Below, piece after piece: positions 2,295-24,449 of a stretch of DNA of 45,799 bases. Made by a program: the position numbers and the translations under genes. The stretch is from a bacterium. GTDB taxonomy: Bacteria; Patescibacteriota; Minisyncoccia; Phycocordibacterales; UBA5272. The stretch is from positions 149,165 to 194,963 of the forward strand of contig JAHFMX010000001.1 of NCBI GenBank assembly GCA_023267635.1, read 5' to 3'. The notes beneath the pieces were generated by a model, which saw only the letters and a list, made by a program, of their open reading frames with translations, was not told where the DNA came from and did no database searches. Positions within the stretch are counted from its first letter, which is position 1. Each line of letters opens with the position of its first letter.

Positions 2295-2928
2295 AATGCG
2301 TTAGGTAGTGAGGGTAGTGTACTTAAATGTAAAATACATGTACCAAAATAAAGTGCCCCTTCGGGCGATGAATATATAATAACACATTTTAAAGGGTACG
2401 TCACGCATACGGAAGGGAATAACAGGCAGTTTAGGGTCTTGTTCTTAAAGAAGTTACTAAGCTTTAGTTAGTTAAGGTGCTGGTAGCTCTAGAAAGTACT
2501 TTAGCTGACTTAATTTTAAGTGTTACTGTATCTATACTAGTTTCATTATTTTAATTGTTAGGTAATACAAATAGTTTAATCTATCTAAATTTGGACAATA
2601 TTTTATCATTTTTACTCTTTCTGATCCTAGCAAGAATATCTGTTTATGTACTTAGAAAGAGCTTATTGTATCCATATAACACAAAGGATAGTGGGAGGGT
2701 TTAGGTGTGTCGACAGTTGAGATTATTTTGAGTAAAATATTCTGTTTCTATTTTTCTAGCTGAGTATTTTTAAAAGAAAAGCTATCCACATATTTTATAT
2801 AAAATATGAATTTATTTTATAGTGTAAGGGTATAATTAAGGTATAAAAATAAGCGTTGTTTGGTTTACATTGCAGCAATGACACTTGCCTCACGTTAATC
2901 AAAAAGACACTTTTCTACACCTTATCCC

Positions 2929-5900
2929 ATGGATCCAATAGTCACACAAAAACTTGATGAGTTGATTGCCAACAAGAAAACGGTAACAGTGATTGCTGAT
3001 GAGTTACAGGTATCTCGACAAACGGTCTATAAGTGGCTTAGTAAGTACAAGAGAGATAATACTGAATTTGCTAAAGCCTTGAGAGAAAGAAGTACTCTTT
3101 CTGCTCATAATAAAATTCCGTCCCAGATAGAAAGTGTTGTTATTTCTATTGCTGAAAAAAACCCAGAAGACAGTGTTTCAGCTTTAACAGCCAAGCTTAA
3201 GAATAACTATAAAATTGTTCTTAACTCCGCAACTGTCTTTAGAATTCTTAAACGTAATAATATCCGTTACCAAGGAGTTTCTATCCCCAAAGAACAATTA
3301 GTAGAGATTTCTCAAGAAATTGTTCCCGTTGTAGAAACTTCTGTGCCCACACCACAAGTAGCTTCATTCACTCCGCCTGTTCAAACGATACCGCTACCCG
3401 TTCTCTTTTCTGAACCTTTTCTAGTACATAAAGGTAAAGATGTGAATACTCGTATGTTTGAGGGTTTGTATAAGTTAACGGCGACTGCACTCGCTGCGGT
3501 TACTTGTGTCTTAACTGTTACGTATGGAGCTACTCGTTTTGAATCAGGTGCTATTGCTTTAAAACAAACTATTCCCTATAACGAACTCAGCTCTCCTGCT
3601 TTTACATCCTACGCAAATATCCTACCAATCAGAGAGGTGGTTGAGTTAATTGGAATAGAAAACCGCACCGCACCAGCTACTCCTACGTTTACTTTTATTG
3701 CAGATTCTCCTCGTTTTAAGAAATCAATTAGTATTTTTTCACCTAGAACTTTTTCTCTTTCAAAACTTGGCACTGCAACAAATTCTTTTGTAAAAAATGG
3801 CCCACGCCTTAGTGTGCTTTCATCCGTTCCTCTCACTAACTATACAAACTATCTATTCGGTGGAGACGTTGCTCGAGCTGAAAATCAAGCTTCGAGCACC
3901 TTTTCTCTTGCTTCGAACTTCTCGTTGCTTGATCGTTTTTCACTCGCTCTTTTTTGCGGAGTTACATCGTTTTCTGGTGAAGTTAAACAGGAAAGATGTA
4001 ATTACAGCAAACTTGCTTCATTAACAGAAACATCAACAGAAGTCGCTCCTATTCCAGGCGATAGTGTTGTGGTTGATGGTGGTGCAGAAGATCAACAGGG
4101 CAGTGCTGAAGATGCAACCCCATCTCTCCCTCCCTCCTCCCCAATCTACCTCACCCGCTACATCACTCAATACATCGGTGTCCCAGGTCCAGCAGGTAAA
4201 GATGGAGCAGATGGTAAAGACGGAGTAAACGGTATCACGTCATCTGCACCAGAAGGCTATGGTTCCTACCTCATTCCTTCGTACTCTTCTCCAGCAACAT
4301 CAATTGGAGTTTCTACCATCTCATACCTTCGTCAAACAACCATTGAACTTCCTGTCATTACAGGAGGTACTGCTACTACGCTTTCTCTCATTACTCCAAC
4401 GGTACAAGGTGGAGTATTCAGTGGACACTCACTCTTTAATGACTCTGCATCATTCACTGGTTCAGTAACCATCAACAACCTTACCGCTACGTCTTCTACT
4501 GTCACTAACCTTACCGCTACTAACGCCACCACCACCAACGCTTACATTGATTTCCTCACCGTAGGGTCTTCTACTGCAGGAAGTCTTACACTAAGTGGCA
4601 CCCTTAACGTAGCAGGAACAACAACACTCGCCACCACTACCGCATCTTCTTTCACCACAACGTACGCAACCACGACAAACCTCTTTACTCAGAATCTTTC
4701 TGTGGGTAATGCTTCAACAACAGGGAATCAATCAATTGATGGACAGTTCAACGTATCAGGAACATCAACCCTTGGAGCAAAGGTCTTCCTTAACGGAAGT
4801 GTGGTAGTTGGTACTTCAAGTGACGAACTGTTCACGGTAAACGCACTTGTTAACTCAAACATTACTCCATCTCAGAACATTACCTATGACCTCGGTTCTC
4901 CATCCTTCTACTGGAGAAACCTCTACGCTAACAACATCAACGTAAACAGTATCTCTGCTGCCTCAACCACCATCTCTGGAACATCTAACAATGACTTCAT
5001 TGTGAACTCAGACAATGGTTCCTCTGATGCTGAAGATGCTTCCTTTGTGTTCTTCCGTGGACTCTCTACACCAAATGCATTGTTACGTTGGAACTCTGCA
5101 ACCAAGCGTATTGAATCCAACATGAGTTTCAAAGTACAAAACGAAACACCAACCACAGGAACAACAACACTCACCGTACAAGCAGGCGCAGGACAGGGAT
5201 CAACGAATCTCTTTGAACTCATTAATTACGCTGGAACCAAACTTTCCGCATTTACCTCACAAGGATGGCTAGGTATTGGAACTACCACACCCTCTACATC
5301 TCTTCACCTTACAACTAACGATGGACTCATCATTCCAGCAGGTACAACAGCACAGCGTCCAAGCACAACTCTCCCAGGTGTTATCAGATACAACACTACT
5401 AACACTGGCTTTGAAGGATTCAATGGTTCTACCTGGGGATCTCTTGGTGGAGTAAGTGATGCAGATCAAAATACCTACATCTCAGCTGAAAACTCAGCTG
5501 GATCAAACAATGATGAACTTAAGTTCTATACCGCAGGCACACTACGAGGCATCTTCTCCTCAACAGGGAACTTTGGGATTGGAACGAGTACGCCAGGGTC
5601 TATGCTTACTGTTGTCGGAACAACATCACTTGCAACGACAACGATTACGGGGACGCTTACGGTGAATGGTAATACCAACATCACTCAAGGAGGAACCCTT
5701 ACCGTTGGAGACAAAGTGATTGCTCCAGGAGAAATTGGTGCAGGAACATCTAGTCCATCAGGAAAAATTGCTATACAAAGTACATTAGCTAACCAGGTTG
5801 CATTTTTGATATACGGTACATCAACTCAGATAGCTCCACTTATTGATGTTTTTGATTACCCAGGATCAAACCAAAATATATTTCGTTTAAGTGCAACAGG

Positions 5901-8769
5901 AACTTTGTCTGCAATTGGTGGTTCATTTGGGAGTCTTGCTATTACTGGACAAACGAATCTTGGTACCGCTTCTTCTACTGGACTTACTGCAACAAATGTA
6001 TATGGTACAAACAGTACGATTACCAACGCAACTTCTAGTTCGTTCTTCTCAACTCTTATAAGCGCTGTAACCGCAGCGTTTACAAATCTTTCAACTACAG
6101 GAACAACAACACTGGCAACTACTGGGGGGAACGTGGGGATTGGAACTACAACACCAACATCTAAGCTGGACCTCTGGGGCAATCTCGCGGTAGGAACTTC
6201 TTCTACTCCCACGCTGTTTGTGAATACTGCATTAGGAAATGTTGGAATTGGAACTTCAATCGGAACATCAACCTTGTTTGTCCAGGGAGCTGGAACGATG
6301 AACCCATTCACTGTTGCATCGTCTTCAGGAACATCACTCTTTTCTGTTCTCGCCAATGGAAATGTAGGAGTGGGGACATCAAGTCCAACACATACGTTAG
6401 ATGTAAACGGAATAGTTAATGCAACTAATTTTTATAAAAATGGAGTTCCATTTATTGCAGGTAGTCCAGCAAATACTATTTCATCATTTAATCAGTCTAC
6501 CTGTCCCGCAGGATGGATTCTTGCAGACGGAACAAGTGGAACTCCTGATTTACGAGGTGTGTATGTGAGAGGTGCAGGAACAAGTGGTTCGTATACCATG
6601 GCAAATGGTAGTCCATACACTTCAACATACGGAACATTCCAGAATGATGCTTTCCAAGGGCATGCCTACCAACCATCTCTATATGCTCAGCATTTGGATA
6701 ATGGAGACGGAGCGGGGTATGCGCTTATAAACGTAGCAAACTTTGCTCTAACGGTGGCCGTTCCTTCGGGTGCAGCTATAAGTGATGGAGTAAACGGTGC
6801 ACCACGTATTTCTACTGAAACTCGTCCAGGTTCATATTCTCTTATCTATTGTATGAAGACTACAGAAGATGCGAACACAACGAGTACTATTTGGGGAAGC
6901 TCTGGAAATAATGTTTTCTTACAAGATACTTCAAAAAATCTTGGAATTGGAACAACGAGCCCAACTTCAGTGTTTACTGTTGCCTCTTCCACCGCAACAA
7001 GTACAGCTAGTATCTTTTCAGTGGCTAGTACAACAACACTCTTTAATGTATTAGCTAATGGAAATGTGGGAATTGGCGCTAGTCCACTTAATTTTAAGCT
7101 TCAAGTAAACGGTTCAGTAAAATTAGGAGGCCTTATAACTATTGGTCGATCTGGTGGTAATTATGATAGTGTTGGTTATAACTTTAGAACAACTGGGACA
7201 TCAGATTCTTATCTGTATGATGTTGAAGATTTTTCTTCTCGGTTAGAGTTTTTTCAAGGAGGATTTTATTTTAAATCGTCAGGTTCAGGTACCGCTGGGA
7301 ACGCAATTAGTTATACAAATACATTTATCGTAGAGCAAACAGGTAACGCAACCCTCGCAGGAACTCTCACTCAAAACTCCGACCAGCGCCTCAAAACAAA
7401 TATTACGTCTCTCCCTTCTTCCTATGGTCTTGATTCTATACTTAAGCTCAATCCAGTCACCTACATATGGAAAGATACTAATCGCGGAACAAGCACTCAG
7501 ATAGGTTTTCTAGCTCAACAAGTGCAGTCATTCTTCCCAGAACTTGTAACACGCTCTTCTGCTACTACAACAGATACACCAGATGGAACACTTGGTCTTA
7601 ATTATATTGATCTTATTGCACCCGCAATTAAAGCAATCCAAGACCTCAATTCTGTCTTTAACGCAACTAATGCCCTTAACGCTTCATCAACCATCTTCTC
7701 CTACTATCAGGGAACAACGACACCAGCAATCACCGTAGGAGCAACTGGAGTACTAGGTATTGGTAACAATGGTATCTCACTAGGCGGTGAATTGTTACGT
7801 GTATCAGGCACTGTGCGTGCGACAGGGTTTGATATCGACAATGCTTCTGATATTGCCGAAACATTTCCAGCAGCAGAAGCGGTGGACGCGGGAACGATTG
7901 TCGCATTTGCAACAAGCACCTATGCATGGTCACCAACGGCAACATCAACTGACACATACGACATGTCTGGTGTTCGCAAAGCACAGAGTGATTATGAAGC
8001 AATTGGTATTATTTCTACACAACCTGGAATACGTTTAGGTGGAACAACAGCAAACGGTGTGCCTGTCGCGTTTACTGGCCGAGTTCCAGTTAAAGTTACT
8101 AAGGAAAACGGAGAGATAAAACGAGGAGACTACATTACTGTATCAAAGACACGTGCTGGGTATGGAATGAAATTAACAGGAGAAGGTAAGGCTGTAGGTG
8201 TTGCTCTCTCAGACGATACAGGGCGAGATACTGTTCTTGTGCTTCTTCAAGTAGGGAATCATAAGTTAGATATGCAAGGACGTAATGCCACTACAACAGC
8301 ATTTCTCACAACAGGAAACCTGGACCTTAACGCAAATGGAGTTGCGATCACCAATATTAAATCTTTAGCCTCTGCAAACGGTACATGGTCAATTGATGAA
8401 AACGGAAAGATTGTAGCGAAGATGTTGTGTTTGGATGAGGTGTGTATCGATAAGAGTGTGCTCAGCACTATCCTCAATTCATTCGGTCAAAGTGGTGCTG
8501 TTGCAGGAACCACCACTTCGGTAGATGTTGCAACAACTACACCAACTGAGACTGGTACCACTACTCCAGATGTGCTTTCAACTGCGTCAACAACTCCATC
8601 AACTACAGCCACAACAACAGAACCAGTAGTAACGCCTACTCCTACAGAACCCGCACCCACACCTGAGCCAGTTCCTACATCTGAACCAACTCCAGAATCA
8701 ACCCCAACCCCTGAACCAACTCCAGAACCAATGTCTACTCCTGTAGAACCTACTCCAATAACACCCTAG
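2929..8769 (+). CDS. Giant (1946 aa) surface/tail-fibre-like protein: N-terminal HTH, TM segment, GNVGIGT repeats, tail-collar-like module, S74-type chaperone, G2-type chaperone, Pro/Thr tail
   Basis: IADELQVSRQTVYKWL HTH; hydrophobic segment near aa 180-200; repeated GNVGIGTxxP; CPAGWILADGTSGTPDLRG; NSDQRLK...IGFLAQQV...LNY; SDIAETF...GRVPVKV; (PE/PT)n tail. Confidence 0.85.
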   Translation: MDPIVTQKLDELIANKKTVTVIADELQVSRQTVYKWLSKYKRDNTEFAKALRERSTLSAHNKIPSQIESVVISIAEKNPEDSVSALTAKLKNNYKIVLNSATVFRILKRNNIRYQGVSIPKEQLVEISQEIVPVVETSVPTPQVASFTPPVQTIPLPVLFSEPFLVHKGKDVNTRMFEGLYKLTATALAAVTCVLTVTYGATRFESGAIALKQTIPYNELSSPAFTSYANILPIREVVELIGIENRTAPATPTFTFIADSPRFKKSISIFSPRTFSLSKLGTATNSFVKNGPRLSVLSSVPLTNYTNYLFGGDVARAENQASSTFSLASNFSLLDRFSLALFCGVTSFSGEVKQERCNYSKLASLTETSTEVAPIPGDSVVVDGGAEDQQGSAEDATPSLPPSSPIYLTRYITQYIGVPGPAGKDGADGKDGVNGITSSAPEGYGSYLIPSYSSPATSIGVSTISYLRQTTIELPVITGGTATTLSLITPTVQGGVFSGHSLFNDSASFTGSVTINNLTATSSTVTNLTATNATTTNAYIDFLTVGSSTAGSLTLSGTLNVAGTTTLATTTASSFTTTYATTTNLFTQNLSVGNASTTGNQSIDGQFNVSGTSTLGAKVFLNGSVVVGTSSDELFTVNALVNSNITPSQNITYDLGSPSFYWRNLYANNINVNSISAASTTISGTSNNDFIVNSDNGSSDAEDASFVFFRGLSTPNALLRWNSATKRIESNMSFKVQNETPTTGTTTLTVQAGAGQGSTNLFELINYAGTKLSAFTSQGWLGIGTTTPSTSLHLTTNDGLIIPAGTTAQRPSTTLPGVIRYNTTNTGFEGFNGSTWGSLGGVSDADQNTYISAENSAGSNNDELKFYTAGTLRGIFSSTGNFGIGTSTPGSMLTVVGTTSLATTTITGTLTVNGNTNITQGGTLTVGDKVIAPGEIGAGTSSPSGKIAIQSTLANQVAFLIYGTSTQIAPLIDVFDYPGSNQNIFRLSATGTLSAIGGSFGSLAITGQTNLGTASSTGLTATNVYGTNSTITNATSSSFFSTLISAVTAAFTNLSTTGTTTLATTGGNVGIGTTTPTSKLDLWGNLAVGTSSTPTLFVNTALGNVGIGTSIGTSTLFVQGAGTMNPFTVASSSGTSLFSVLANGNVGVGTSSPTHTLDVNGIVNATNFYKNGVPFIAGSPANTISSFNQSTCPAGWILADGTSGTPDLRGVYVRGAGTSGSYTMANGSPYTSTYGTFQNDAFQGHAYQPSLYAQHLDNGDGAGYALINVANFALTVAVPSGAAISDGVNGAPRISTETRPGSYSLIYCMKTTEDANTTSTIWGSSGNNVFLQDTSKNLGIGTTSPTSVFTVASSTATSTASIFSVASTTTLFNVLANGNVGIGASPLNFKLQVNGSVKLGGLITIGRSGGNYDSVGYNFRTTGTSDSYLYDVEDFSSRLEFFQGGFYFKSSGSGTAGNAISYTNTFIVEQTGNATLAGTLTQNSDQRLKTNITSLPSSYGLDSILKLNPVTYIWKDTNRGTSTQIGFLAQQVQSFFPELVTRSSATTTDTPDGTLGLNYIDLIAPAIKAIQDLNSVFNATNALNASSTIFSYYQGTTTPAITVGATGVLGIGNNGISLGGELLRVSGTVRATGFDIDNASDIAETFPAAEAVDAGTIVAFATSTYAWSPTATSTDTYDMSGVRKAQSDYEAIGIISTQPGIRLGGTTANGVPVAFTGRVPVKVTKENGEIKRGDYITVSKTRAGYGMKLTGEGKAVGVALSDDTGRDTVLVLLQVGNHKLDMQGRNATTTAFLTTGNLDLNANGVAITNIKSLASANGTWSIDENGKIVAKMLCLDEVCIDKSVLSTILNSFGQSGAVAGTTTSVDVATTTPTETGTTTPDVLSTASTTPSTTATTTEPVVTPTPTEPAPTPEPVPTSEPTPESTPTPEPTPEPMSTPVEPTPITP

Positions 8770-19674: not shown

Positions 19675-20688
19675 ATGGGATTTTTCTCCAAGAAACTTGG
19701 TATCGACCTAGGAACAGCTAACACGCTTGTGTATGTTCCGCATAAAGGTGTGGTTCTTGTCGAGCCTTCGGTTGTGGCGGTTTCTGTTATCGATAATAAA
19801 ATCATGGCTGTTGGAAATGAGGCTAAAGATATGATTGGAAAGACACCTGATTCAATTATTGCCTACCGACCGATGCGTGATGGCGTGATCGCTGACTATC
19901 GAGTAACAGAAGCAATGCTCCGTTACTATATTAATAAAGCGCTTAAAGGTTTTAATCTTTTCAAACCAGACGTTATGATTTCTGTTCCGGCGGGAGTAAC
20001 TTCTACTGAACGTCGTGCCGTGATCGAAGCTGCTCTTAAAGCAGGAGCTAGAAATGCCTACGTTGTTAAGGAGCCTATCTTGGCTGCTATCGGAGCTGGT
20101 ATTCCAATTCATGAAGCTCAAGGAAGAATGATTGTTGATATTGGAGGAGGGACAACTGATGTGGCGGTGATTTCTCTTGGCGGTATTGTGTGCAGTACAT
20201 CTGTTAAGTGTGCTGGAAATAAGATTGACCAAGCGATTATTGATTACATTAAGAAAACATACAATCTAGCAATTGGAGATCAGACAGCAGAAGAGATTAA
20301 AATAAAAATAGGATCTGCGCTTCCTGTGGAAGAAGAGCTTTCTATGAAGGTGAAGGGACGTGATTTTATTGCAGGACTTCCACGCACTGTTGAAATTAGA
20401 ACCAACGAAATTGTAAAAGCGATTGATAAGGAGCTCCGCCTCATGGTTAAGGCAATTAAGGATGTGCTTCAGGAAACACCACCAGAACTTGCCTCAGATA
20501 TTATTGATAACGGAATCATTATGTCAGGAGGAACATCAATGCTTCGTCACTTTCCAGACCTTGTAGAGAGACGTACTGGGGTAAAAGCTGTACTTGCGGA
20601 TGATGCTTTCTATTGTGTGGCAAAGGGGACAGGTATTGCGCTGGAACATTTGGATACCTATAAGCGCTCTATCTTCGCAAAGAAGTAA
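19675..20688 (+). CDS. mreB: Rod shape-determining protein MreB, paralog 1 (stand-alone)
   Basis: GIDLGTANT, EPSVVA, VDIGGGTTD and SGGTSML motifs. Confidence 0.96.
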   Translation: MGFFSKKLGIDLGTANTLVYVPHKGVVLVEPSVVAVSVIDNKIMAVGNEAKDMIGKTPDSIIAYRPMRDGVIADYRVTEAMLRYYINKALKGFNLFKPDVMISVPAGVTSTERRAVIEAALKAGARNAYVVKEPILAAIGAGIPIHEAQGRMIVDIGGGTTDVAVISLGGIVCSTSVKCAGNKIDQAIIDYIKKTYNLAIGDQTAEEIKIKIGSALPVEEELSMKVKGRDFIAGLPRTVEIRTNEIVKAIDKELRLMVKAIKDVLQETPPELASDIIDNGIIMSGGTSMLRHFPDLVERRTGVKAVLADDAFYCVAKGTGIALEHLDTYKRSIFAKK

Positions 20689-23351: not shown

Positions 23352-24449
23352 ATGTCAGCTACCGCAATTTTCCTTTTCTTTATTATTTTATTAGCGCTTG
23401 TTATCGTCCATGAGTTTGGGCACTTCATCGTTGCTAAATGGGTTGGTATGAGGGTGGATGAGTTTGCATTTGGTTTTCCGCCACGATTGTTTTCAAAAAA
23501 GAAAGGAGAAACGGTGTATGTGGTGAATGCATTGCCACTCGGTGGATATGTTTCAATTTGGGGAGAAAATGGCGAGCCCGACGATGAAGCGAAAACTCAT
23601 CCTCGCGCATTTGGTAATCGTCCAAAATGGGCGCAACTCCTTGTTCTCATGGCAGGCGTTGCAATGAACATGGTATTGGCATGGTTCATTTTTGTGGCTA
23701 TTTCATTTGGAAGTATTCAGATGAGTACAAATGATCCAGTATACGGATCACGAGTTAAGAACGCCGCTATTATGGTGGTAGATGCAGCTCCTAATTCTCC
23801 TGCGCATTTGGCGGGCATTATCCCAGGCTCTGTTATTACAAATATAAAGAGTGGTACAGCAACAGCCAACCTCACTTCTGCTACGTCGGTAATTGCATTT
23901 ATCGCGAGCCATCAGAATGATTCGTTCGCTATTAGTTACGTTAAACCAAATGGTACAAAAGCAGAAACGGTTGTCGCTGCGGTCTATGGAATTACACCTG
24001 ATAAAAAAGCACTTGGCATAACTGTCGATACCGTTGGAGTGGTACGCACTTCTATGGTTGAAGCTGTAAAAATTGGAACAGCTCGTACACAAGATATAAC
24101 GATGATGACGCTCCAAGGGTTGTGGGCGCTAGTGTCTTCTATTGGAGGAGGAACTAATGTGCTCGAATCTTTATCTGGTCCGATTGGGATTGCTCGTATT
24201 GTGGGAGAGACAAGTGAATATGGATTTGCTGCAGTGCTTACGCTTGTAGCCATTCTTTCAATTAACCTTGCAGTGTTTAATGCACTTCCGCTCCCAGCAC
24301 TTGATGGAGGAAGAATGGTGGTTGTGGCACTTGAAGCACTAAGTAGAAAGAAGATTCCATTTAAGTATTATTCTTGGGTGAACGTAGCAGGGTTTGTTGC
24401 GCTTATGCTGCTATTGGTTGTGGTAACCGTTAACGATGTACGGCGATAG
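23352..24449 (+). CDS. rseP: Site-2 protease (M50, RseP-like) with PDZ domain
   Basis: HEFGH motif; NALPLPALDGG. Confidence 0.93.
   Translation: MSATAIFLFFIILLALVIVHEFGHFIVAKWVGMRVDEFAFGFPPRLFSKKKGETVYVVNALPLGGYVSIWGENGEPDDEAKTHPRAFGNRPKWAQLLVLMAGVAMNMVLAWFIFVAISFGSIQMSTNDPVYGSRVKNAAIMVVDAAPNSPAHLAGIIPGSVITNIKSGTATANLTSATSVIAFIASHQNDSFAISYVKPNGTKAETVVAAVYGITPDKKALGITVDTVGVVRTSMVEAVKIGTARTQDITMMTLQGLWALVSSIGGGTNVLESLSGPIGIARIVGETSEYGFAAVLTLVAILSINLAVFNALPLPALDGGRMVVVALEALSRKKIPFKYYSWVNVAGFVALMLLLVVVTVNDVRR

Follow-up and report, generated by a model that had tools for sequence, protein, structure and literature searches.

An IS481-like DNA-binding head and a terminal-repeat-like leader site at the gene of a giant membrane-anchored fibre in Patescibacteria

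Transposase DNA-binding domains that have been domesticated together with their own terminal repeat are well known in eukaryotes, and the host-transposase fusions SETMAR and CSB-PGBD3 are said to bind their old terminal repeats still. Insertion sequence (IS) transposases act in cis at their own ends, and the N-terminal IS products InsA of IS1 and OrfA of IS911 repress at the left end. RodZ exemplifies a membrane-tethered helix-turn-helix (HTH) that can bind a protein, MreB, instead of DNA, while the eukaryotic MyRF is a trimeric membrane-bound transcription factor with the order DNA-binding domain, S74 domain and transmembrane (TM) segment, in which S74 cleavage frees the DNA-binding domain. 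In a census of transmembrane transcription regulators, single-pass proteins were the most common type; its main text makes no mention of transposases or of Patescibacteria (Demey et al. 2023, PMC10269533). Here we analyze a gene located in 45,799 nucleotides of contig JAHFMX010000001.1 (positions 149,165 to 194,963, hereafter the window) from a patescibacterial genome of 1.22 Mb (G000; 56 contigs, ~94% complete) whose closest named relative is labelled Candidatus Nomurabacteria. The gene encodes a transposase-type HTH head joined, through one TM helix, to a phage-tail-fibre-like ectodomain of ~1,745 residues, and its leader carries a site that resembles an IS481-type left terminal repeat. In the published literature we found no bacterial case in which a domesticated pair of transposase domain and repeat is wired to a membrane protein, and no description of an HTH-TM-fibre architecture.

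The gene is a 1946-codon open reading frame (ORF) that starts with ATG, has no internal stop and is preceded by an in-frame stop ten codons 5' of the ATG. The ORF and its N-terminal parts are as follows (coordinates are positions in the window; pLDDT, predicted local distance difference test score):

2929..8769, + strand: whole ORF, comprising head, TM helix and fibre; 1946 residues; orthologues share the start Met.
2929..3273, + strand: bipartite HTH head, residues 1-115 (HTH1 helices residues 3-43, HTH2 residues 65-109), predicted to be cytoplasmic; from Pfam and NCBIfam models and AlphaFold2.
3274..3468, + strand: variable linker rich in Pro, Val, Thr and Glu, residues 116-180; pLDDT < 50 at residues 117-171.
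3475..3531, + strand: single predicted TM helix (signal anchor), residues 183-201, LTATALAAVTCVLTVTYGA; from Kyte-Doolittle hydropathy and the AlphaFold2 helix.

An AlphaFold2 model built with a nine-sequence alignment contains two three-helix bundles (residues 3-43 and 65-109, pLDDT 88-95), a disordered segment (residues 117-171) and a long helix (residues 172-211). The Kyte-Doolittle value of LTATALAAVTCVLTVTYGA is borderline at 1.59, and orthologues reach 1.9-2.25 at the same position; four Lys/Arg residues precede the TM segment and two follow it, which favours an N-in orientation. The basic head carries a net charge of +8 and lacks Cys, and the acidic ectodomain carries one of -36, with 38% Thr, Ser and Gly and six Cys in three apparent pairs. 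We infer that the product is a single-pass N-in/C-out membrane protein with its DNA-binding head in the cytoplasm. An internal start at Met177, which would yield a head-less fibre, was ruled out, as this Met is kept in the closest relatives only.

The head is recognized as a DNA-binding domain by Pfam, in which residues 12-115 match HTH_23 (8.6e-09; 35.4 bits against a cut-off of 24.6), HTH_28 (26.7 bits, cut-off 25), HTH_32 and HTH_29. With NCBIfam the same residues match the IS481 (7e-14, profile positions 12-108 of 284) and IS630 (1.8e-12, positions 9-113 of 299) transposase models, each over the N-terminal third only, ~110 positions, and with a head score of 52 bits against the 224-bit cut-off of the transposase model. 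No DDE/rve catalytic core was matched at E <= 1 by Pfam or NCBIfam profiles anywhere in the 1946-residue protein. The best matches of the head are transposase-type HTH models, and its match to the Xre-type HTH_3 is weak (E = 0.053). In a Foldseek search the best neighbours were the paired domains of Pax5 and Pax6 and the bipartite DNA-binding domain of Tc3 transposase bound to transposon DNA (1u78), all weak (E 0.09-0.11). Searching the PDB by sequence with the whole protein gave no match, and a profile of the head gave only weak single-HTH matches there, namely SpoIIID, the Tn552 invertase and IS21 IstA.

A likely source of the head is present in related genomes. Three genomes of the same genus or order contain IS481-type elements of ~1 kb with a transposase of 303-306 residues (HTH and DDE) and terminal repeats of 31-33 bp starting with TGT; two of these elements have 5-bp target-site duplications:

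G002, C30 921-1904 (L009): IS481-type element, target-site duplication AACCT; G002 holds two copies.
G048, C24 934-1904 (L010): IS481-type element, target-site duplication AAAAA.
G026, C7 ~1427-2400 (L008): IS481-type element, a pseudogene with a TAG inside HTH1.

The head is 34-41% identical to these transposases from about residue 5 to the motif RILKRNN[IV]RY at residues 113-114, with 52-63% identity in HTH1 and 53-67% in the recognition helix of HTH2. Beyond that point the similarity stops abruptly, with 0 identities in the next 14 residues. These matches show that the first 113 residues correspond, by homology, to the DNA-binding region of an IS481-family transposase without its catalytic domain, and the three elements likely represent the source family of the fibre head. 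A preliminary description of this ORF, which had read it as a transposase-type double HTH resembling IS481/IS630 N-termini, lacking DDE and running in an uninterrupted frame into a TM helix and fibre, was accurate: the profile matches, the end of homology at residue 113-114, the intact ORF, the hydropathy helix, the AlphaFold2 model and the PHROG matches described below all bear it out.

The fusion is not confined to this genome. The preliminary description had proposed a search for the same architecture in proteins of the candidate phyla radiation, and head, TM helix and fibre recur together, at 33-94% identity, in no fewer than 13 assemblies that were made independently in different projects. 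The closest orthologue, P0002, comes from another metagenome and has 1981 residues (94% identical in the N-terminal region, 84% overall). P0003 has 3327 residues and occurs on 21 contigs, P0008 has 4454 residues and occurs on two, and the G029 orthologue is complete at 3615 residues; those of G014, G017, G018, G022, G013, G035, L026 and L028 are partial and run through the TM helix into the ectodomain up to the contig end. This recurrence of the frame in assemblies independent of each other shows that the junction did not arise by misassembly, contrary to one possibility raised earlier. Orthologues conserve the N-terminal 600-1,040 residues and a C-terminal module, with a middle that varies so that total length ranges from 1946 to 4454 residues. 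Within the first 215 residues, all 20-24 invariant columns fall in residues 1-110, and neither the length nor the sequence of the linker is kept. Ratios of nonsynonymous to synonymous substitution rates (dN/dS) were calculated by region with the Nei-Gojobori method for the window protein against P0002 and against G017:

Head: 0.030 against P0002, 0.056 against G017.
Linker: 0.29 against P0002, 0.44 against G017.
TM segment: 0 against P0002, 0.07 against G017.
Whole protein: 0.20 against P0002, 0.22 against G017.

Head and TM segment are by this measure among the most constrained parts of the protein, consistent with strong purifying selection on the head. The suggestion that the HTH might be a one-off IS remnant free of such selection is contradicted by these values and by the number of independent assemblies.

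The head is single-copy in the window's genome, and a first survey of 36 further genomes of the genus found it in 10. Among 400 evenly drawn Patescibacteria genomes, 8 had head matches besides the window's genome and G018, three of them in frames of 2,000-2,600 residues. In a library of 1.8 billion proteins, a TM helix is predicted for 71 of the top 150 relatives of the head region; for head relatives longer than 400 residues the count is 56 of 67. P0014 and many further relatives belong to a large family of family-2 membrane glycosyltransferases in which the first TM helix is preceded by two transposase-type double HTH modules in tandem. The P0004 orthologue (L047 3001-3804) has 267 residues, comprising the head, the TM helix and ~65 further residues, and its stop lies 141 nt before the contig end; truncation of the allele, splitting of the gene or a sequencing error may explain this short frame, and its leader has an IS-type motif.

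We then compared the leaders of the fibre genes with the ends of the IS elements. The IS left repeat, TGTTAACATTGCAGCAATAGAGTTTACACTTTA, ends 2-3 nt before the transposase ATG, and the right repeat shares with it the core TTGCAGC-N5-AGTTTACAC. The leader analysis covered the last ~150 bp of the intergenic region at 2295-2928 and revealed these elements:

2831..2836, + strand: predicted -10 box TATAAT; TATAAT or TATACT, conserved in register across the upstream regions of 11 orthologues.
2863..2889, + strand: candidate operator from the IS481 left terminal repeat; outer half GTTTACATTGCAGCAAT (2863-2879) intact, inner half GACACTTGCC degenerate.
2902..2909, + strand: AAAAGACA box, ~20 nt 5' of the ATG; without variation among the 8 aligned leaders of orthologues.

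The outer half GTTTACATTGCAGCAAT agrees with the L010 left repeat at 16 of 17 bases. The window contains no other match of this quality, and chance would give 0.02. Nowhere else in the 1.22-Mb genome does GTTTACATTGCAGC occur, and CATTGCAGCAA is invariant in 8/8 aligned leaders. In the IS left repeat the site takes the form CATTGCAGCAA-N4-GTTTACA, which the fibre leaders of nearly all orthologues conserve. A composite site CATTGCAGCAA-N4-GTT(T/C/G)ACA lies 48-75 nt 5' of the fibre ATG in P0008, G022, G013, G029 and G035, and the ungapped identity of these five leaders to the IS 33-mer is 26-27/33. L026, L028 and G459 also carry the composite site, P0003 and P0004 have variant forms, and the window, P0002 and G017 retain only the outer half of the IS-type site. 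In the window's genome the best match to the 33-mer among 2.45 million positions is 23/33, and the window's own site scores 19/33.

A scan of 41 genus genomes for CATTGCAGCAANNNNGTTNACA, with one mismatch allowed, located it at fibre promoters in 5 genomes, once in each, and otherwise exclusively at left ends of IS elements, twice in G002 and once in G026. A control with the reversed pattern gave 0 matches in the same 41 genomes, and CATTGCAGCAANNNNGTTNACA has no match in the window's own genome, G000. The window's genome holds only one left-repeat-like site, with no second (right) repeat and no TGT end. Across the leaders the terminal TGT of the IS is not conserved, which fits a site retained for binding and not for cleavage. 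These alignments show that the head and its putative cognate site were domesticated together, the left-repeat core being co-retained in the leader. A wider regulon is not supported, as the site is single-copy in the window's genome and elsewhere in the genus marks only fibre promoters or IS ends.

Four boxes are common to the leaders: TATAAT, a TATA(A/T)AAA-TAAG stretch, the repeat-derived box, which lies downstream of the conserved TATAAT, and the invariant AAAAGACA. The last is similar to ACACTT, the core of the IS inner end, and to a GACACTT at 2880-2886, and is modestly over-represented genome-wide (110 copies against 69 expected). A generic promoter scan of the region chose hexamers other than the conserved TATAAT. 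Folding of the aligned orthologous leaders gave 0 consensus pairs (z = -0.46), so that an RNA element in the leader was ruled out and the conservation is one of primary sequence.

Further observations concern the upstream region. In the L014 locus (G014:C26, 5208-5762, - strand) the orthologue has a tandem duplication of HTH1, and ~125-175 nt 5' of its ATG the composite site gives way to half-sites in an array (GTTTACA/TGTAAAC) that contains the perfect palindrome GTTTACATGTAAAC; the G018 upstream region carries the palindrome AAAGTGTAAAATTTCAGCTGAAATTTTACACTTT. A TATCCACA box at 2783-2790, matching 8/9 positions of the E. coli DnaA-box consensus TTATCCACA, is kept 5' of the -10 box in nearly all orthologous promoters, ~40 nt upstream in the window and at varying spacing elsewhere. 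An origin of replication or DnaA-box cluster was ruled out, the box being present here as a single copy and its 60 copies in the genome being unclustered. The intergenic region from the divergent ABC-F gene to the fibre gene (2295-2928) is 634 bp, long for so small a genome, and measures 633-648 bp in P0002 and P0008.

The fibre family also contains members without a head. A paralogue of 1627 residues (G000:C35:134268-139148), ~10 kb before the window start, has no HTH; where the fibre has HTH, linker and TM helix, it begins with a cleavable signal peptide of the ordinary kind (…SVEVHA|AS…), and no IS-type motif was found upstream of it. It provides a natural comparison for a fibre without the head. 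The paralogue is 68% identical to the fibre over residues 151-926 in a full-length alignment and 38% over residues 292-437 in a local one. Derivation of the TM helix from the signal peptide of this paralogue is unsupported, as significant similarity begins only at about residue 292. Many head-less fibres of the genus, several per genome, also carry the base and C-terminal modules (25/41 and 31/41 genomes, respectively). The earlier caveat that homologous fibres might start downstream therefore holds in part: head-less homologues exist, but in the orthologous lineage the head is conserved.

The head-fibre gene was found in at least three contexts, between ABC-F and DHH genes (window, P0002, P0008, G017), after the DHH gene (G022, P0004) and after an RNase HII gene (P0003, G013). 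In G030 (L050, C11) and G461 (L052, C10) the ABC-F and DHH genes are adjacent and the head-fibre gene is absent, so the gene is accessory. At these two empty sites and at two others, L051 (G009:C8) and L053 (G023:C1), the ABC-F gene adjoins the DHH gene or a gene of 157 codons, and no IS-type motif has been left behind at any of the four. The alignments indicate that one paralogous lineage of a larger fibre family acquired an IS head and site.

Compared with an IS481 element, the locus shares the bipartite HTH, 34-41% identical to that of live elements in sister genomes, and the same left repeat 5' of the gene; it differs in lacking DDE, the right repeat and the terminal TGT, in its single-copy, immobile site and in the fusion to a TM helix and fibre. 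With the DDE core, the second repeat and a target duplication all absent, the protein by its sequence is not a transposase. A DNA-binding N-terminal piece at its own left end is nevertheless the classic autoregulatory arrangement of an IS. SETMAR and CSB-PGBD3 similarly fuse a transposase DNA-binding domain to a host protein and reuse the cognate repeat as a site; they are nuclear and soluble with many dispersed sites, whereas the fibre is bacterial and membrane-tethered with one site.

Thus, the feature is real and conserved, and the function best supported, at a probability of roughly 0.6, is autoregulation at the membrane, in which a membrane-tethered fibre binds its own leader site in cis through the IS481-derived head. 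The idea of a membrane-anchored regulator, put forward in the preliminary description, gains independent support from the conserved left-end repeat in the fibre leader. In this mechanism the head would bind the single leader site and autoregulate the fibre gene. Repression would be the simplest outcome, given a site 3' of the predicted -10 box and 5' of the ATG, at roughly +20 to +50. Since the head would be the first part to leave the ribosome and the site is ~60 bp 5' of the start codon, a loop acting co-translationally and in cis is conceivable. The TM helix would then fix the head-DNA complex at the membrane. Such a loop would limit output of a very large Sec-dependent protein and hold the locus at the membrane.

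Several observations weigh against this mechanism. By structure, the head matches bipartite DNA-binding domains only weakly (E ~0.1), and the hydrophobicity of the TM helix is borderline in this protein (1.59). The lineage can dispense with the head, which the first survey found in 10/36 other genomes of the genus. The window site is half preserved, with 16/17 bases in the outer half against 19/33 for the full 33-mer and no CATTGCAGCAANNNNGTTNACA match in G000, and G014 and G018 carry rearranged versions. The transcription start is predicted from the conserved TATAAT alone; if the true start were further downstream, the motif could be an IS-inherited promoter element and not an operator.

The predicted parts of the ectodomain are:

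3574..4128, + strand: membrane-proximal base module, residues 216-400, with the motif FSLLDRFSLALFCG...RCNY (Cys343/Cys357); kept across orthologues.
4177..4239, + strand: collagen-like run of seven G-X-Y triplets, GVPGPAGKDGADGKDGVNGIT, with YLTRYITQYI just before it.
4240..7377, + strand: fibre shaft rich in Thr, Ser, Gly and Ala, with GNVGIG repeats and a weak tail-collar-like domain (~nt 6475-6888); from PHROG matches and repeats.
7378..7551, + strand: Peptidase_S74 intramolecular chaperone domain (PF13884), residues 1484-1541, with SDxxxK as S1484-D-Q-R-L-K; Pfam 4.5e-16.
7810..8454, + strand: conserved C-terminal module, residues 1628-1842; from conservation.
8512..8766, + strand: low-complexity C-terminal tail rich in Pro, Thr and Glu; from the sequence.

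The G-X-Y run is kept in all orthologues long enough to show it. The shaft has four GNVG[IV]G repeats and a weak Collar match (E = 0.038), and the C-terminal shaft and S74 region match the PHROG tail-fibre families phrog_1980 (1e-19, residues 1312-1585), phrog_9942 and phrog_33119. P0002 also has the S74 domain, which P0003 and P0008 lack. The C-terminal module shows 62-65% identity in the latter two, with BLASTP matches that span it at 52-58%, and it recurs in several fibre paralogues of the genus; its sole family hint is a weak DUF7765 match, and its AlphaFold2 model is of low confidence (pLDDT 29). It is more conserved than the head (62-65% against 33-43% identity) and, lying 3' of the S74 cleavage motif, might be cut from the fibre. 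The tail is the fastest-evolving part, with 41% residue identity to P0002. To judge from the seven G-X-Y triplets, S74 and the PHROG matches, the fibre is probably a trimer, and its shaft may be homotrimeric and beta-helical. Like phage tail fibres and the mosaic adhesive trimer (MAT) proteins of Bdellovibrio, it is a long modular tail-fibre-like protein with S74 and SDxxxK and with tips swappable among paralogues (Caulton et al. 2024, PMC10769870). It differs from the published description of the MAT fibres in having an N-terminus of cytoplasmic HTH, linker and TM anchor, and from MAT and phage S74 fibres in that its S74 domain lies 460 residues before the C-terminus and is not terminal.

The fibre could alternatively be a sensor, its binding, tension, S74 self-cleavage or shedding altering the clustering of the heads or freeing them by proteolysis, in the style of ToxR/CadC or of site-2 proteases, and so switching the fibre gene. 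The predicted protein combines the DNA-binding domain and TM region by which a transmembrane transcription regulator is operationally defined, and its architecture is that of the single-pass members of the group (PMC10269533). ToxR, CadC and TcpP likewise hold both in one polypeptide, although here the head is transposase-derived and neither OmpR- nor Xre-type, the ectodomain is a giant structural fibre and not a compact sensor, and the own promoter is the only evident target. MyRF, too, is a single chain in which a DNA-binding domain is combined with a TM anchor and with an S74 trimerization domain of the phage-tailspike kind. Its S74 membership is mentioned in PMC10769870. In the fibre, however, the order is HTH (1-115), TM (183-201) and S74 (1484-1541), the DNA-binding domains are unrelated, and S74 on the outer side of the membrane cannot release the head. 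An RseP-type site-2 protease is encoded in the window (23352-24449), yet such proteases are near-universal, as our controls show, and nothing links this one to the fibre. A trimer suggested by the collagen-like run and S74 would cluster three heads, and the leader has up to three ACAYTT-type boxes; against this, the ectodomain gives no sequence sign of signal sensing, and as the composite pattern marks only the own promoter and IS left ends, any signal would control the fibre alone. We regard the sensor as unlikely. Three heads facing two or three related leader boxes are a speculative arrangement. We think it similarly unlikely that a trimeric fibre, its three heads placed co-translationally and in cis on the IS-derived boxes, links the cell surface to a single promoter, with outside events such as trimer completion, S74 cleavage or fibre loss or engagement on a host cell changing occupancy; if it did, the cell would replace or multiply fibres only when needed.

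Other accounts take DNA binding out of the picture or shift its purpose. The head may have stopped binding DNA and serve as a cytoplasmic plug that makes a signal peptide an uncleaved anchor, or as a docking domain like that of RodZ, the motif being promoter DNA inherited from the IS. RodZ with its MreB partner is the precedent, mreB lies in the window (19675-20688), and the paralogue has its ordinary signal peptide at about equal distance from the shared base module. A plug would, however, require neither constraint as strong as that of the head (dN/dS 0.03-0.056) nor a concentration of conserved residues in the two recognition helices that it has in common with active transposases; the retained motif is the transposase-binding inner part of the repeat with the terminal TGT lost, and a docking domain has no known partner here, which together make this account rather improbable. 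DNA binding might instead serve mainly to hold the fibre gene or nucleoid at the site of membrane insertion, the level of transcription being secondary. Cells of this bacterial group are very small, the single site is beside its own gene, and the head would emerge long before the 5.8-kb gene is fully translated, all of which would suit a tether. This role and autoregulation are inseparable by sequence alone, but with its position 3' of the -10 box and 5' of the ATG the site would influence transcription anyway, and we give a primary tether little credence. Giant repetitive genes often break assemblies, most orthologues end at contig ends and related IS copies exist in the genus, so an assembly chimera or a recent, decaying IS insertion before a fibre gene had to be considered. 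The same junction in the independent assemblies noted above, the absence of a DDE remnant or right repeat and the strong purifying selection make either exceedingly improbable.

Autoregulation at the membrane by an IS481-derived head therefore stays the reading we favour. Closely related genomes display the whole path, with live IS copies, a domesticated head and site, an HTH-less paralogue with a signal peptide and empty sites. The proposal offers a concrete DNA target of 17-33 bp and a domain of 115 residues, both open to bench experiments that need no culture of the organism. It also speaks to the question of how ultra-small bacteria, having few regulators, may control their largest and costliest surface structures.

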